From: Candidatus Poribacteria bacterium
GTDB taxonomy: Bacteria > Poribacteria > WGA-4E > JAJDTR01
Reading direction: 5' to 3'
DNA length: 64,000 nt
Assembly (NCBI GenBank): GCA_965222225.1
Contig: CBDCTK010000002.1
Coordinates: forward strand, 3,808,001-3,872,000
Shown here: one piece after another, positions 22,011 through 60,480 of the stretch
How positions within the stretch are numbered: position 1 is the stretch's first letter
How the letters are laid out: every line of letters starts with the position of its first letter
Translations under genes and position numbers: made by a program
The notes under the pieces: model-generated
What the model saw: the letters and a program-made list of their open reading frames with translations, nothing else
Databases searched by the model: none
What the model was told of the DNA's origin: nothing

Positions 22011-22256
22011 GGGTAATCTCCTCAATTCTTGTTATCTCACCCAAGTTGCCAACCTTTCTCGTAGGTCGGGCTTCTATCCCGACCCACTCAACGAGGAACA
22101 TTGCAAACTGAGACTATGCGATCGAAATCAAGTCAAATATCGCCCGCAGTGGATTGCCAAATCCACTGCCTTAGGTGCGGGAAACTGGTAATTAGAACGA
22201 AATACAATACTCGAAAAGTGAAAATCCCGGAATCTCTGAATTGGTAGCAACTTGGG

Positions 22257-23213: not shown

Positions 23214-23417
23214 TGAACCCCTCTTGACTGGCGGCGGCGATGACCTAACGATGGCTGTGTGTCCGCGAGGATGGTTCTTGTAAGTGCAGGCGATGTTTGA
23301 TACAATGATAGCAGTTATCGAAAACGGTGTCAAACGAATTGATTATCACGGATTGTGTGGGATGGAGTGTTGGGTTTCACTCGGATTTCGGCGCTTTTTG
23401 GGCGAAGGGGAGAAAAA

Positions 23418-24398
23418 ATGCGATTCAAGTTGACACCTAGATCTATACTGTTTGCGGTGCTGTGTGTCTGTCTGACGAGTGGGGAGCTGTGGTTGAGAAA
23501 CGGACTCGCCTTCAACACAGGTCGAATTGTTTTTACATCCATGAGAGATGGCACCAATGAAATCTATGTAATGGATGCCGATGGAGGAAACCAAGAAAGA
23601 CTGACAAACCATCCAACGTATGACTTCGATCCGGATTGGTCTTCTGACGGGAAGAAGATTGCATTCGTTTCCACCCGAATCGGCAACGGTTTTAAAATCT
23701 ACGTAATGGACGCCAATGGAAAGAACCCGATTAGACTGACAAGTGAACTGTCGGAGAAGCAGCCAGACTGGTCTCCCGATGGGCAAAAGATCGCTTTCAC
23801 CGTCCTCCCAGATAAAGAAGATTTGGTACCTCATATCGCCGTGATGGATGCTGATGGAAATAATCGTGTGAGGCATGAAGACCACGCGATGGAGCCATCA
23901 TGGTCTCCCGATGGGGAAGCGATTGCATTCGTATCCTGGAGACATGGGGGCAATGAAATTTACATGATAGGCGCTGACAGACAGGGGCTTAAAAGGGTGA
24001 CGCGCGATTTGGAACCTAAAAACAGGCCATCGTTTTCTCCCGACGGACAACGGATTGCATACTATGCCTGGCACGAAGGCGAAGGATTCGATCACATCTA
24101 TGTGGTGGACACTGATGGTAGAAATCGCAAAAGGCTTACGCACAATCAAGAGCATCATTCGCAGCCCGCATGGTCTCCTGATGGACAGACGATTGCATAT
24201 GTGATGTCTAACGATATTTTTTTCGGCGGAGCAACGATTCACTTGATGACCGCCGATGGAAAATATCTTAAGCAACTTAGCGATGTCCATGATGCACACG
24301 ATTATCAGCCCGACTTTAGCCCGATAGGACTAGCTGTGTCCCCCACTTCCAACAAAATCACAATCTGGGGGAGGCTTAAGCTCGACATTGTGCAATAG
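23418..24398 (+). CDS. Secreted TolB/PD40-repeat beta-propeller, paralog 1
   Basis: Repeated P.WSPDG..IAF; C-terminal AVSPTSNKITIWGRLK. Confidence 0.88.
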   Translation: MRFKLTPRSILFAVLCVCLTSGELWLRNGLAFNTGRIVFTSMRDGTNEIYVMDADGGNQERLTNHPTYDFDPDWSSDGKKIAFVSTRIGNGFKIYVMDANGKNPIRLTSELSEKQPDWSPDGQKIAFTVLPDKEDLVPHIAVMDADGNNRVRHEDHAMEPSWSPDGEAIAFVSWRHGGNEIYMIGADRQGLKRVTRDLEPKNRPSFSPDGQRIAYYAWHEGEGFDHIYVVDTDGRNRKRLTHNQEHHSQPAWSPDGQTIAYVMSNDIFFGGATIHLMTADGKYLKQLSDVHDAHDYQPDFSPIGLAVSPTSNKITIWGRLKLDIVQ

Positions 24399-24430
24399 TA
24401 CACTTCATGAATTGCCATCTTGTAGGGTGC

Positions 24431-24467
24431 GATCAAAGGAACGAATAATGATTGCGATAGAGATCCC
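24431..24467 (+). repeat. 37-nt structured micro-element inserted in a REP
   Basis: GATCAA AG GA AC GAATA AT GA TT GCGATAG AG ATCCC interrupts GTAGGGTGC..CTGCGCACC. Confidence 0.85.
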
Positions 24468-24632
24468 CTGCGCACCAGCCTTTGAAAGCGCCAGCGACGC
24501 GACGGGTCATTGAAAACCTCGCCAGCGTTGAGGGCGTCGCTTAATGGTTGGAAGTGCGTCCAAACAACTCACGTTATTGCGCTCTAAACCAGATTTTCAC
24601 CGCTCATTTTATCCACAACTAAGGAGGGCAAA

Positions 24633-25607
24633 ATGCAATTCAAACTGACACCTAGACTTATACTGTTTGCGGTGCTGTGTGTCTGTCTGACGAGTGAGGA
24701 ACTGTGGTTGAGAAACGCACTCGCCTTCAACACAGGTCGAATTGTTTTCACTTCCCTGAGAGATGGCAACACTGAAATCTATGTAATGGATGCAGATGGA
24801 GGAAACCAAGAAAACCTGACAAACAATCCAGCGTACGACCATGTTCCGGATTGGTCTCCTGACGGGACGAAGATTGCATTCGTTTCCGACCGAAACGGCG
24901 GCGCATCTCAAATCTACGTAATGGATGCCGATGGAAAGAACCCGATTAGACTCACGGACGGACGGCGGCATAAGTCACATCCAGACTGGTCTCCTGATGG
25001 ACAAAAGATTGCATTCACCGTCAACCCGGGTTGGATAAACGATTGGGTACATCATATCGCCGTGATGGATGCTAATGGAAATAATCGTGAGAGGCTTGAA
25101 GACCAGGCGTCGGGGCCATCGTGGTCTCCGGATGGAAAACAGATTGCATTCGTGTCCTGGAGAGACGGGAACGGTGAAATTTACGTGATAGGCACTAACG
25201 GACATGGGCTGAAAAGAGTGACGCACGATTTAGTAGGTCAACACAGACCGTCGTTTTCTCCCGACGGACGACGGATTGCATACATTGCGGAGCACGAAGG
25301 ATTCCTTCACATTTATGTAGTGGACTCCAATGGAAAGAATCTACAGAGGCTTACGCACAATGAAGAGAATCATTGGGGGCCCGCATGGTCTCCTGATGGA
25401 CAGACGATCGTATATTACGTCTGGGACGGCATCTTGGAGGGAAATCTTCACGGCACGATTCACTTGATGGCCGCCAATGGAAGATATATTAGACAACTTA
25501 GCGATGCGCGCGATCATAATCCCGACATTAGCCCGCTAGGATTAGCTGTGTCCCCCGCTTCCAGCAAAATCACAATCTGGGCGAGGCTGAAGAACCTGTT
25601 TGAATAG
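24633..25607 (+). CDS. Secreted TolB/PD40-repeat beta-propeller, paralog 2
   Basis: Near-identical N-terminus to paralog 1; PD40 repeats; AVSPASSKITIWARLK. Confidence 0.88.
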   Translation: MQFKLTPRLILFAVLCVCLTSEELWLRNALAFNTGRIVFTSLRDGNTEIYVMDADGGNQENLTNNPAYDHVPDWSPDGTKIAFVSDRNGGASQIYVMDADGKNPIRLTDGRRHKSHPDWSPDGQKIAFTVNPGWINDWVHHIAVMDANGNNRERLEDQASGPSWSPDGKQIAFVSWRDGNGEIYVIGTNGHGLKRVTHDLVGQHRPSFSPDGRRIAYIAEHEGFLHIYVVDSNGKNLQRLTHNEENHWGPAWSPDGQTIVYYVWDGILEGNLHGTIHLMAANGRYIRQLSDARDHNPDISPLGLAVSPASSKITIWARLKNLFE

Positions 25608-30273: not shown

Positions 30274-30378
30274 GGCGTGTATGTTGAGCGCTTCACTTGA
30301 GGAGGATGCGCAGACAGTTCTATCGCGCTCCTTATTCAGTCACTTGATCCCTACAGTAGAAACTAATTCGAGGAGCAA

Positions 30379-31845: not shown

Positions 31846-31912
31846 GTTGCGGTTCACGGAATGGTAGGCGGTGCCCACCCTACTACACATGAAGTCGAAA
31901 AGGGGAAGATTC

Positions 31913-35993: not shown

Positions 35994-36177
35994 GAACCTG
36001 TTTGGAAAGTACATTTGCAGGGCGCGCACTGCGATCAACTGACTGGATAAGAAAGGCGATAGCTAATCCCGTGCGATAGAAGTCCCGATAGGTGTATAGC
36101 AGGCGACCACAAAAGCATGAAAAAGCCGCGCCCAAAGTGACTGAAATTGCTTTGCCACCTATTATTCAAACAGGCTC
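35994..36177. mobile_element. IS5/IS1031-like MITE, copy 1
   Basis: GAACCTGTTTGGA...TTCAAACAGGCTC, TTA target duplication. Confidence 0.8.
36033..36086 (+). repeat. 37-nt micro-element plus extra 3' half, inside the MITE
   Basis: GATCAA CT GA CT GGATA AG AA AG GCGATAG CTA ATCCC GT GCGATAG AA GTCCC. Confidence 0.8.
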
Positions 36178-36905: not shown

Positions 36906-37280
36906 ACGTCGGTTTCTCCCAATTACTATCTAATTCGGATTTTACGATAGGCGTCTGACCAGCCCACATCTTATAATCCCGATTCAAAGAGACGAATTCA
37001 AACCGAGACGATACCACCCCTTATGTTGACTACTTGGGTAATCCGCTGTATCCTGTGTCATAAGGACAGACCTTTATTGCTGCTCGGTCTTGTTCACCGA
37101 ACGATGATTGTGTGCGCCACGGCTTTGTGTCAGGGCGTTCTCGTTTGTAGCGGATTAAAATAATCCATTGCACTACGGACTGTCAAGGTTCAGGAAAAAA
37201 AGATACTATAGTCATTGCAACTAAGAATTACACATGTGTTTATTAACATACCCAAATTCCCACCCATTCCCGTAGGTCGG

Positions 37281-37317
37281 GATCAACCGAACGAATAGTG
37301 AGGGCGATAGAGATCCC
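37281..37317 (+). repeat. 37-nt micro-element in REP GTAGGTCGG..CCCGACC
   Basis: GATCAA CC GA AC GAATA GT GA GG GCGATAG AG ATCCC. Confidence 0.88.
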
Positions 37318-37411
37318 TTCCAGCCCGACCCGCTCAATGGGAAACGTCGCAAACCGGGAGATTGTGAGCTAAGTCGAGTCAATCAATGCTCATATGTGTA
37401 AATATAAATGA

Positions 37412-37822: not shown

Positions 37823-37905
37823 GGGACCTCTATCGCAAGGGATTTGCTATGGGATCTCTATCGCATTCGCTAATCGCTCATTTGATCCTATCCGGTCGCT
37901 TGATC
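37823..37905 (-). repeat. Nested micro-elements
   Basis: Complete inner unit at 37851-37887 inside split outer unit(s). Confidence 0.85.
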
Positions 37906-41393: not shown

Positions 41394-41487
41394 GGATCTC
41401 TATCGATAAAAGGAACGGACAGTGACTACGATAGTATCCTACTCACTACGGGATTTACTATCGCCTTCACTATTCGTTCAGTTGATC
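41394..41487. repeat. Nested micro-elements in both orientations
   Basis: Forward unit 41405-41440 inside a reverse remnant; reverse unit 41450-41487 next to GCTCCTAC. Confidence 0.85.
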
Positions 41488-41575
41488 GCTCCTACGGTTG
41501 GTAGCGATTGTTGTTGACCGAGAAGCGAAAGCGGGGTAAAATTCTCCCGCATTTGTCATATGGAATCACCTCTAA

Positions 41576-41786
41576 GAGCCTGTTTGAATAATCGGTGGCA
41601 AAGCCATTTTTAGTTATTTGTCGGAAGTTTTTTCATGTTTTCATTGTTGGCTGCTACATACCTGTCGCCCTGCTGGGGCTTAGGTGCACGGGGTTTTTGG
41701 TGTTTCTATACACCTTCCGCCCCTCTGGGGCTTTAGATGCTAGTGCGCAGTGCGCACCCTACAAACTGTACTTTTCAAACAGGCTC
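41576..41786. mobile_element. IS5/IS1031-like MITE, copy 2 (211 bp)
   Basis: Perfect 13-bp TIR GAGCCTGTTTGAA/TTCAAACAGGCTC, TAA target duplication. Confidence 0.9.
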
Positions 41787-41850
41787 TAAGAGTGATGGAG
41801 AGCATTGACTTTAACCAAATCGAATGATGCCGCATCCGAAGGGTTTGAAG

Positions 41851-43227: not shown

Positions 43228-43242
43228 CCATATGTAGGGTGG

Positions 43243-43278
43243 GATCAAGGGAGCGAATAGCGACCGCGATAGAGTTCC
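43243..43278 (+). repeat. Micro-element in REP GTAGGGTGG..ACTGCCCACC
   Basis: GATCAA GG GA GC GAATA GC GA CC GCGATAG AG TTCC. Confidence 0.88.
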
Positions 43279-43437
43279 ACTGCCCACCAGCCTTTTTCCT
43301 TGTGCGTCTGATTGGACGTTCACCTTCAATTATTCCGCAATGTTTGTCGATTCGAATCGAAATGATTATGATGTAAACCGTATATCCGGTCTAACTAGAA
43401 TTCTTCCGATGCCCGGGACGGGCGAGAGGAACCAGAA

Positions 43438-44502: not shown

Positions 44503-44643
44503 ACCATGGGAAAGACCATAATCAACCCCCGTTTCAAAACAAAATCTTGGAATCGGTTTAGAATTGCCGCCTAACTCGTATCTCTAATTTGCTGTAGGAG
44601 CGATCTCCGAATCGCGACCCTCGGTTTGCGGTAACGCGGTTCT

Positions 44644-44981: not shown

Positions 44982-45070
44982 AATCAAGCGAGTGAATAGC
45001 GAGTGATCAAGGGAGTGGCAAGCGACCGCGATAGAAATCCCATAGAAAATCCTGTGCGATAGAAGGTCCC
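44982..45070 (+). repeat. Nested micro-elements next to a family-B REP half
   Basis: Inner unit 45005-45041; followed by ACTGTTAGTTTGCG. Confidence 0.85.
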
Positions 45071-45247
45071 ACTGTTAGTTTGCGGATTCCAAAATCTAAC
45101 GGATTAGGCAGAATGCGCGGATGATGGAATATTGCCACGAACAACCGAATTTCATGAATCCAATCGGATAGGACCTACGCAAATCTTTCCCATTACGCAT
45201 TATGTATTTCGAGACATTCAGTTACGGAAACCCCAAAGGAGTAAAAC

Positions 45248-46312: not shown

Positions 46313-46636
46313 GCCGTGGTGGAAAGATAGTAATCAACCTCCGTTTCTTAGTGAAATTGTATGGCTGGTTTAGAATTGCTGCTTAAATCGTATATCTTAT
46401 TTGCTGTAGGAGCGATCTCCGAATCGCGACCCTAGGTTTGCTGTAACGCAATTCATTCCGTATCCGATTGGTAGTTCACTTGCCTGTAGACCGCAATATG
46501 TGTAAATATTAACGTAAATGAATATAGATGCTATTGCGTTGTCCTGAGAACGTTGTGAATTGAGGTTCGGACGGTGGATGTGGTATACTTTATATTCGCC
46601 TAAACCACGGATTTTGAACAAAGGAGTGTGTAATCT

Positions 46637-48825: not shown

Positions 48826-48879
48826 AGATCTCTATAGAGTTCCCTAATCCGTCACTTGATCCTATCCAATCGCTTGATT
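48826..48879 (-). repeat. Nested micro-elements in a family-A REP
   Basis: Inner unit 48826-48861 plus outer 5' half abutting GTTCAACCCAACCTAC. Confidence 0.75.
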
Positions 48880-51993: not shown

Positions 51994-52112
51994 GGGACCT
52001 CTATCACGCGGGATTTACTATCGCTTTCGCTATGGGATTTACTATCGCACTCGCTGTCCGCTCGGTTGATCGTTCGTTTGATCTCAGTCAATCCTATTTC
52101 GGTCGCTTGATT
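51994..52112 (-). repeat. Deepest nest of micro-elements (3-4 levels) in a family-A REP loop
   Basis: Four 5' ends and three 3' ends between TTGGGTTTCAC and CTTCTACCCAACCTAC. Confidence 0.85.
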
Positions 52113-54437: not shown

Positions 54438-54607
54438 GATCAAGGGAGCGAATAGCGACTGCGATGGAGATTCCTTTATTGCGCGTCTTCTGTAGGAGCG
54501 AGTTTCACTCGCGACAGAAAGTCGTGGCCGGAAGAGGATTTCTATCGCACGGGATTGTCTATTGCACTCCTTATCTAGTCGCTTGATCGTTCTCCACTTG
54601 TTTGATC
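54438..54607. repeat. Forward micro-element (54438-54474) and reverse nested pair (54535-54607)
   Basis: Inner unit 54551-54588 replaces the second GA of an outer unit. Confidence 0.85.
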
Positions 54608-56376: not shown

Positions 56377-56685
56377 CTCGACTTTGTACAAAAATACAAT
56401 TCTGAATTGCCATCTTGTAGGGTGCGCACTGCGCACCAGCCTTTGAAAGCTCCAGCGCGAGATCAAACGAGTGAATAACGAGGGATCAAGCGACTGGATA
56501 GGGAGCGTAGAAGTCCCATAGCAAATCCCGTGCGATAGAGATCTCGACAGGTTGCATAGTATCAGGAACCGCTTGAGACTTTTTCAATGGTCAACCAAAA
56601 AGACCAAATGTCTAAAATCTCCTCCATTTTTCTTCAACGCTTGATTGACACCGTTTGTTATCCCGCTTAAATGTACAAAGTCGAG
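56377..56685. mobile_element. MITE with perfect 14-bp TIR CTCGACTTTGTACA
   Basis: CTCGACTTTGTACA...TGTACAAAGTCGAG; carries a REP and nested micro-elements; related ends at 35826 and 58412. Confidence 0.75.
56461..56544 (+). repeat. Nested micro-elements
   Basis: Two GATCAA starts and three 3' ends. Confidence 0.85.
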
Positions 56686-58468: not shown

Positions 58469-58505
58469 GATCAAGCGAACGGATAGTGAGTGCGATAGAG
58501 ATCCC
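58469..58505 (+). repeat. 37-nt micro-element in REP GTAGGAGGG..TTGCCCCG
   Basis: GATCAA GC GA AC GGATA GT GA GT GCGATAG AG ATCCC. Confidence 0.88.
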
Positions 58506-60409: not shown

Positions 60410-60480
60410 GGATCTCTATCAATCAACTGACCGAACAAGGAAGGCGATAGAAAATCCCACTCCCTATCCATCGTTTGATC
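60410..60480. repeat. Forward micro-element (60421-60458) nested in a reverse one
   Basis: GGATCTCTATC[AATCAA...ATCCC]ACTCCCTATCCATCGTTTGATC. Confidence 0.85.

Follow-up and report, generated by a model that had tools for sequence, protein, structure and literature searches.

A mobile hairpin repeat of roughly 35 bases that inserts into REP palindromes of Candidatus Poribacteria

The genome of a Candidatus Poribacteria bacterium carries a non-autonomous mobile element of 34–37 nt, which represents a new family within the kind of very small mobile repeats. The family is real, abundant and recently mobile, and as a hairpin repeat of roughly 35 bases it is among the smallest mobile DNAs known. 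Coordinates refer, unless another contig is named, to the window, i.e. the whole stretch of 64,000 nt analyzed here (contig CBDCTK010000002.1, positions 3,808,001 to 3,872,000). The unit is built from (G)ATCAA, a 17-nt hairpin and GCGATAGAGATC(C). Its copy at 24431 is 36–37 nt long and reads GATCAAAGGAACGAATAATGATTGCGATAGAGATCCC, and the consensus is G1 ATCAA x y GA n n G R ATA n' n' GA y' x' G24 CGATAGAGATC C(C). ATCAA and GCGATAGAGATC are the invariant parts, while the motif GTAG is absent from the unit and is carried by the host sequences. As far as literature searches on REPs and MITEs of Poribacteria reach, the unit is undescribed, and no Rfam family matches it.

Using a degenerate 32-nt core, 979 ungapped copies with up to 3 mismatches were counted in the 5.7-Mb genome (183, 314, 315 and 167 copies at 0, 1, 2 and 3 mismatches), against none for the reversed-pattern control, so that the unit occurs far beyond chance. 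A strict expression recovers 324 genome copies, 320 of which are exactly 36 nt long. The genus comprises ten genomes, five of them seen as single-contig chromosomes; the genome under study is termed G000 below, and the relatives used for comparison are G001, G002, G003, G005 and G009. All 9 other genomes of the genus harbor 328–826 copies at no more than 1 mismatch. In the genome collection the exact pattern occurs in at least 98 stretches, and all 80 matches listed belong to Candidatus Poribacteria MAGs. A covariance model detected the unit in 17/151 sampled genomes of the phylum with a patchy distribution: 8/8 in genus g1, 1/1 in g2 (3 copies), 4/4 in g4, 2/20 in g6 and 1/1 in g11, and 0/100 in family f2. 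Within the genomes searched, the unit is thus confined to some Candidatus Poribacteria. Viral contigs gave 0 matches, and carriage by phages was accordingly rejected.

The following loci of the window carry the comparison of empty and filled sites.

24431..24467, plus strand: micro-element copy (GATCAA, hairpin AGGAACGAATAATGATT, GCGATAGAGATCCC) with 0 mismatches to the 32-nt core; its G1 may be the target's
24422..24476, plus strand: filled REP-A (GTAG plus palindrome GGTGCGCACTGCGCACC), left arm 24422-24430, right arm 24468-24476
56417..56437, plus strand: intact empty REP-A GTAGGGTGCGCACTGCGCACC in the paralogous spacer, from the sequence as read
56461..56545, plus strand: nest of two units, 85 nt, outer copy GATCAAACGAGTGAATAACGA..GTGCGATAGAGATCTC, 24 nt downstream of the intact REP-A, read by eye
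22061..22084, plus strand: empty REP-E GTAGGTCGGG^CTTCTATCCCGACC, from the sequence as read
37272..37330, plus strand: filled REP-E, copy 37281-37317, AGGTCGGG / CTTCCAGC
31863..31883, minus strand: empty REP-D-like unit GTAGGGTGGG^CACCGCCTACC, from the sequence as read
43234..43288, plus strand: filled REP-D, copy 43243-43277, with a paralogous empty site at 31863 and an orthologous empty site in G005
58469..58505, plus strand: copy in a GTAGGAGGG..CCCCGA REP, from ortholog comparison
44594..44608, plus strand: empty REP-C GTAGGAG-CGA-TCTCC, from ortholog comparison; the same empty sequence lies at 46406-46420
45005..45040, plus strand: nested copy, situated after G24 of an older one; G001 is without just the 23-nt head-plus-hairpin module
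30318..30349, minus strand: core copy with 1 mismatch after CTGTAGG, in a spacer that is unalignable in relatives
36033..36064, plus strand: core copy at a second REP-A site (after GCGCACTGC), followed by orphan tails

Seven further copies came from a pattern scan of the window.

37856..37887, minus strand: nested copy, within the loop region of another one
41456..41487, minus strand: copy after CCGTAGGAGC (REP-C)
48830..48861, minus strand: decayed nested copy with 3 mismatches
52040..52071, minus strand: copy within a multi-copy nest
54438..54469, plus strand: copy after TGTAGGAGC (REP-C)
54557..54588, minus strand: decayed nested copy
60421..60452, plus strand: copy inserted after ..CTCTATC into another copy, on the opposite strand of the latter

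The earlier note, made from the window alone, had proposed three pairs of empty and filled sites, and both its quoted sequences and the pairs are present where it placed them. In the first pair, the letters of 24422-24476 are GTAGGGTGC, the unit as G ATCAAAGGAACGAATAATGATTGCGATAGAGATCCC, and CTGCGCACC. In the nest at 56461-56545, a decayed inner copy together with an orphan tail interrupts the outer copy behind its 3' stem, and the nest is hosted by a REP-F-like unit (GCTCCAGCGCG..CGACAGGT) whose homologue at 24488-24507 is uninterrupted. Since the two loci share their flanks while REP-A and the next REP are filled oppositely, the 24422 and 56404 loci represent, reciprocally, the empty and filled versions of two adjacent REPs. 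In the second pair, the copy at 37281 is a 35-nt insertion between G and C of the empty site at 22061, with 0 nt lost. The third pair, formed by the sites at 31863 and 43243, is joined by an orthologous comparison: at 43243, G005 is empty (GTAGGGTGGG followed by CACTGCCCACC), and relative to it G000 carries 34 additional nt, ATCAAGGG..GAGTTC, cleanly and precisely inserted between the G and the C (GTAGGGTGGG^CAC). G003 is filled at this locus, and G001 and G002 have a different spacer. Across the genome, the paralogue comparison yielded empty counterparts for 152 copies (472 pairs).

The loci at 24410 and 56404 are spacers within tandem arrays of genes of about 330 aa (23355-24398, 24633-25607 and many paralogues), whose products by eye resemble PD40/TolB-type beta-propeller repeats. 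An 801-nt query around the 24410 locus finds 58–87 matching places per sister genome.

Syntenic stretches from four sister genomes provided the orthologous evidence, and differences between empty and filled states were found at 43243, 58469, G001:22507 and G002:32657. At 58469, G001 has zero copies, G000 one and G005 two, the second being nested in the loop of the first. A 35-nt copy present only in G001 replaces the CGA of a REP-C loop which is empty in G000 (44594-44608), G002 and G005; identity around it amounts to 97.5–98.5% in the left flanks and about 90–91% in the right flanks. Another copy, in G002, sits in the opposite strand of a copy that G005 has uninterrupted. Altogether, orthologous empty sites at no fewer than five loci bear out the view that these are true insertions, and copies were inserted, and possibly excised, after the species of the genus had diverged. 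Contigs from Logan (four runs, four studies) break off at the repeats (e.g. 37234/5 and 43262), and their joints are cross-repeat artefacts. The empty REP-C lies in a 27-nt stretch found twice, 1.8 kb apart (44590-44616 and 46402-46428), in a locally duplicated region.

The stems of the copies bear on a further explanation, according to which the unit is a long-loop REP variant spread by RAYT activity and without mobility of its own. Its favorable points are the single dominant stem class in each of two REP families (AGAT in 26/46 filled REP-A sites, GGGC in 25/44 REP-F sites) and the presence of RAYT-like genes. However, 3–16 stem classes occur per REP site, for instance 12 in 46 REP-A copies and 16 in 21 REP-C copies, and so many compensated classes at one site require repeated insertions. 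The unit also occurs in at least six unrelated REP families, 319/979 copies lie inside other copies, and a few lie in ORFs. Sister genomes moreover have empty orthologous REPs, by which this explanation is largely refuted, and we regard it as very improbable. The two dominant stem classes suggest that filled REPs have also been amplified as REPs.

Landing is always 3' of a G, mostly at S-G^C and with no longer fixed word, almost always in one orientation and at one fixed position per REP family. The targets belong to at least six GTAG-type or RAYT-linked families; already within the window, copies lie in REP-A (24431, 36033), REP-C (41456, 54438), REP-D (43243), REP-E (37281), the GTAGGAGGG type (58469) and a REP-F-like unit (the 56461 nest), in agreement with the proposal of at least five families. 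The proportion of left REP arms that continue into ATCAA is 17–41% (REP-A 51/198, REP-D 21/124, REP-B 21/51, REP-E 9/29, REP-F 17/74). GTAG lies no more than 16 nt upstream on the folding strand in 268 copies, and CTAC lies downstream in 51; an upstream GTAG is found at just 5.65% of intergenic G^C steps. Some flanks are chimeric, with a REP-A left arm and a REP-F right side.

The unit is also a target of itself, and four or five fixed positions are used within its own copies. The copies directly inside another copy comprise 292 same-orientation nests (128 after G24, 43 after G13, 43 after G20, 52 after A17/N18, 14 after A10, 12 at others) and 27 inverted nests at CTATCG^C, which again corresponds to the duplex step G24/C25. 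This G^C step at the 3' foot of the hairpin, outside the loop, is thus the most used site (128 + 27 copies). Recognition of hairpin shape, as the earlier note had supposed, is not supported by these observations: the constant feature is the G (S-G^C) on the GTAG strand, the top site is outside the loop, and stems of at least 6 in the flanks of 635 non-nested copies reach 5.7% versus 1.4% with shuffled partners, only weakly above the control. Flank complementarity was dropped as proof of hairpin targeting because of this weak enrichment. What the targets share is a G (usually S-G^C) whose context is fixed, and not the loop as such. A guide-like link between stem letters and target was likewise dropped, as no flank-stem pair is among the 15 highest values of mutual information.

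Orphan modules occur genome-wide (648 heads without tail and 373 tails without head, at up to 1 mismatch), and runs of CATAGAAATCC-like orphan tails as well as orphan heads are found in the window, e.g. at 45037-45075 and 56505-56545. The 23-nt head-only difference between G000 and G001 at 45005 points to a separate loss or gain of the modules.

No target duplication was found among the 979 copies for k = 2–8 and ten boundary settings, the best result being 87/979 identical flanking k-mers versus 56 expected at k = 2. This argues against DDE cut-and-paste with staggered cuts, and the claim of a non-DDE mechanism is upheld to this extent. Features of DDE-type MITEs are likewise missing at the ends of the unit, which share only GGATC/GATCC and have no terminal inverted repeats of 15–30 bp. 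A serine-recombinase or GATC-crossover model was rejected since the empty sites contain neither GATC nor a shared core dinucleotide.

The 5' joint is exact, with G always followed by ATCAA. At the ragged 3' joint, GAGATC is followed by between one and three C or T residues. In the paralogue pairs the apparent loss of target is 0 nt (15), 1 (17), 2 (33), 3 (8), 4–5 (34) or at least 6 (21), the larger values being inflated by paralogue divergence; 19 further pairs (147 in total) give negative losses, which are mostly tandem or nest artefacts and in four cases overlap only 1–2 nt. Insert length minus loss stays at about 34–35 nt. A loss of 2–3 nt had been proposed as a rule, and this does not hold in general, the range being 0–4 nt; a real loss of 3 nt was, however, seen in G001. 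The GC thought to be lost in two of the three pairs equals the first G and the last C of the unit, so that these pairs can equally be read as clean insertions between G and C, as seen at the G005 site; the proposed loss is thus partly an artefact of how the ends were parsed.

Crude ORF proxies (at least 90 aa) cover 82% of the genome and contain only 187/979 copies; many such ORFs are 90–150 aa long and built from repeat arrays. That no ORF is hit is correct for the window, where no copy lies inside a convincing gene and three overlap just the ends of crude ORF proxies. The statement fails genome-wide, where 15/979 copies lie more than 150 nt inside ORFs of at least 150 aa. All inspected in-ORF copies (10/10) read in a stop-free frame, e.g. 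GSSDRIGSAIGN, which fits selection removing other insertions and favors the purifying selection that had been offered as the alternative reason for the absence from ORFs. In a 2419-aa ORF (G000:C2:2921257-2921391), 72 extra nt including one unit (C2:2921272) are in frame; this patch is absent from G005 (99% identical flanks) and from four other genomes. The native gene already reads GGATCAAG at the patch point, and 15 nt past the patch are diverged.

These joints and the in-ORF patch could also be seen as the work of host repair or template switching at REP hairpins at which the DNA breaks or replication stalls, pasting copies from other copies as filler or by gene conversion; the unit would then have no transposition machinery of its own. 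Target loss varying between 0 and 4 nt, ragged 3' joints, chimeric flanks, the 23-nt head-only difference at 45005 and the many orphan heads and tails would all be in line with such pasting, as would the copy at C2:2921272, which sits where the native gene has GGATCAAG and is accompanied by another 36 nt and a diverged patch. Repair would not readily account for the exact 5' joint, at which ATCAA always follows G, nor for the strong orientation rule; microhomology at clean sites is just 1 nt on each side, and no donor with matching flanks was found for the 72-nt patch. On balance, we consider repair an improbable source of the copies.

Four stem pairs co-vary according to mutual information (11-19, 8-22, 7-23 and 12-18, from 1.17 to 0.50 bits, the next value being 0.31). 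In a set of 130 copies drawn from several genomes and differing in their hairpins, 93.1% of the cells are paired versus 61.9% after shuffling, and double-sided stem changes number 202 versus 36, with 0/500 shuffles as high. The combinations G9-A21, A10-G20, G13-A17 and A6-G24 are conserved in 918–947/979 copies. The folding strand therefore forms three sheared G-A pairs and four co-varying Watson-Crick or G-T pairs; this single co-varying hairpin spans positions 7-23, and beyond it only a 4-5-nt complementarity of the GATC ends was noted by eye. Over the four stem pairs, G-T occurs 245, 30, 31 and 134 times (total 440) and A-C 11, 18, 14 and 17 times (total 60). Wobble is thus tolerated on one strand only, which indicates that one particular single strand folds. 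The GATCAA (top) strand out-folds its complement in 888/979 copies with RNA parameters and in 791/979 with DNA parameters, at mean energies of -4.95 and -1.36 kcal/mol, respectively. Selection thus acts on one specific single strand, either RNA or ssDNA, to fold.

Between same-direction genes, 335 copies are sense and 285 antisense. Orientation follows GC skew: at values under -0.01 there are 263 plus and 104 minus copies, and at values over 0.01 these numbers are 102 and 220, respectively. The top strand thereby coincides with the C-rich strand in 483/689 copies at an absolute skew above 0.01 (70:30), a bias whose significance is overstated by nested copies that are not independent. Orientation could be linked to replication rather than to transcription, though selection after insertion could give the same bias. 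Along the 5.6-Mb contig C2, the sign of GC skew flips about ten times and the orientation of the unit flips along, reflecting either many inversions or assembly joins.

If the folding strand were RNA, a transcript of the unit would adopt the fold and then be converted back into DNA where G^C steps are exposed. RNA-mediated spread has reportedly been proposed for cyanobacterial SDRs by Elhai and co-workers. One-sided tolerance of wobble pairs and the stabler fold with RNA parameters would be expected under such a route, and tandem G-A pairs like those of the unit are a well-known motif of RNA; the raggedness of the 3' joint and the small losses of target would fit copying. Orientation shows no bias relative to neighboring genes and yet a 70:30 bias relative to GC skew, and the lack of any Rfam match likewise speaks against RNA. 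The one RVT_1 match in the genome is weak and has no copy beside it, for which reason a link to retrons or reverse transcriptases was dropped. Spread through RNA thus seems hardly probable to us.

As the best explanation, at a probability of roughly 0.4, we propose that the unit is a non-autonomous element moved in trans as ssDNA by a HUH/Y1 or similar enzyme. A ssDNA nicking-joining enzyme is favored by the absence of duplications, the strand-specific folding, the orientation rule and the replication-linked bias. The folded single strand would be the recognized form, and a HUH/Y1 enzyme (IS200/RAYT-type) or a similar nicking-joining enzyme would move the unit as ssDNA during replication. The unit would thereby act as a parasite of the REP-RAYT system, and filled REPs would afterwards be co-amplified as REPs. 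Several observations oppose a HUH/Y1 enzyme: none is tied to the unit; the unit departs from IS200/IS605 in its single hairpin, its ragged 3' joint and its small losses of target; and the folding strand is mostly on the leading-strand template. The strand polarity of IS608 (Ton-Hoang et al. 2010) is reportedly the opposite of that of the unit.

A bolder and rather doubtful version of this proposal makes the unit a 34-nt hyperparasite, the smallest autonomous-looking mobile DNA, which hijacks the nicking and joining of REP hairpins and can leave precisely. It would carry one G-A-rich hairpin and two end motifs of 5–12 nt and nothing else, and RAYTs or an unrecognized enzyme class would act on the nascent lagging strand. 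Precise departure is suggested by the locus at 43243, where G005 is empty while G000 and the more distant G003 are filled.

Candidate machinery for transfer as ssDNA is present in the genome, which has five Y1_Tnp loci, and the REPs flanking them are themselves targets of the unit. An intact 157-aa RAYT-like Y1 gene is flanked in 12 loci by its own REP, GCCCCAG[AC]GGGGCGACAGGTG. This REP, at the 3' end of the gene, contains the unit as an insert in 3 loci only (G000, G001 and G005) and is empty in 8, with one locus unoriented. Searches recovered the gene from each of the 9 other genus genomes, and 36/61 genomes of the order, some from genera without the unit, contain homologues of it. Y1 number 4, which is flanked by GTAGTAGGCAC-type REPs, occurs in 2/8 other sampled genomes of the genus, as does Y1 number 2 (likewise 2/8), and both were rejected as drivers because their distribution does not follow the unit. 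None of the three Y1/RAYT genes compared therefore tracks the unit. Inverted copies beside three Y1 genes had prompted the idea that the unit is the RAYT's own REP, which was abandoned as relatives show a different REP there. No tnpA-like gene in the genome is bounded by ends of the unit, and beyond 200 nt the distances from head to tail form no size class; an autonomous long version was rejected for want of a size peak in these distances.

A 247-aa Y1_Tnp protein without flanking repeats is encoded on the minus strand at G000:C2:2563965-2564705 (L114 1120-1863). It is 99% identical in G005 and was not found in six other genus genomes, apart from a fragment in G009, and this distribution suggests a recent transfer. 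At about 41572-41790 the window contains a different repeat, about 220 nt long and without relation to the unit; it occurs in dozens of places in each of five sister genomes at 79–91% identity, has very high contig depth in all four runs, and is probably another non-coding mobile element.

To our knowledge, how repeats of less than 100 nt move has been an open question since the cyanobacterial SDRs of 2008. The present family combines about a thousand copies in a genome with datable gains across ten related genomes, a sharp structure and target rule, and a visible interplay with REP-RAYT systems, so that oligonucleotides and recombinant Y1 proteins can be used to test the question despite an uncultured host. 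The units also matter for the assembly and annotation of sponge-symbiont genomes, as short-read contigs break there and arrays create spurious ORFs.

Among known systems, IS200/IS605 elements and PATEs share with the unit the absence of duplications, dependence on a hairpin, landing 3' of a short target, possible precise loss and a replication-linked strand bias. Subterminal hairpins at both ends, precise joints and a target fixed at 4–5 nt are typical of IS200/IS605 elements. The unit, in contrast, has one hairpin, a target reduced to G (S-G^C) and a ragged 3' joint, no autonomous parent was found for it in the genome, and its strand polarity is opposite to that reported for IS608. Insertion sequences targeting REPs, such as IS1397/ISKpn1 and IS110/IS1111 members including ISPpu9/10 (cited in PMC3116915 and PMC3733652), likewise use REP palindromes as specific, orientation-dependent targets. 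They exceed 1 kb and encode their own transposase, whereas the unit has 35 nt and codes for nothing.

REP/REPIN-RAYT systems resemble the unit in being short extragenic hairpin repeats with hundreds of copies, single-strand folding and no duplication, in the Y1 transposase genes of the genome, and in rare in-frame copies in ORFs. Rare in-frame copies in genes are described for REPs and RPEs, as are REPs inside other palindromes, in PMC3733652. Unlike REPs and REPINs, the unit has no GTAG or CGTC tag, sits inside REPs and is not the repeat flanking any examined Y1 gene; its adjacent or nested copies are direct (292) and not inverted (27) as in REPINs.

By their description, the closest known kind is the small dispersed repeats (SDRs) of Nostocaceae. 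SDR1-8 were reportedly described by Elhai et al. in 2008, with sizes said to be 21–27 nt. SDR5 lies between nt 3 and 4 of HIP1 GCGATCGC according to PMC4390886, and SDR-like repeats are reported only in Nostocaceae according to PMC5861425. The unit differs from SDRs in its length of 34–37 nt, in occurring in another phylum and in having GTAG REPs rather than HIP1 as hosts; HIP1 is not enriched in the genome (120 copies). Compared by description, both are tiny, non-coding and self-nesting, keep a hairpin through compensatory changes, insert precisely into a short palindrome without evident duplication, and have no known enzyme.
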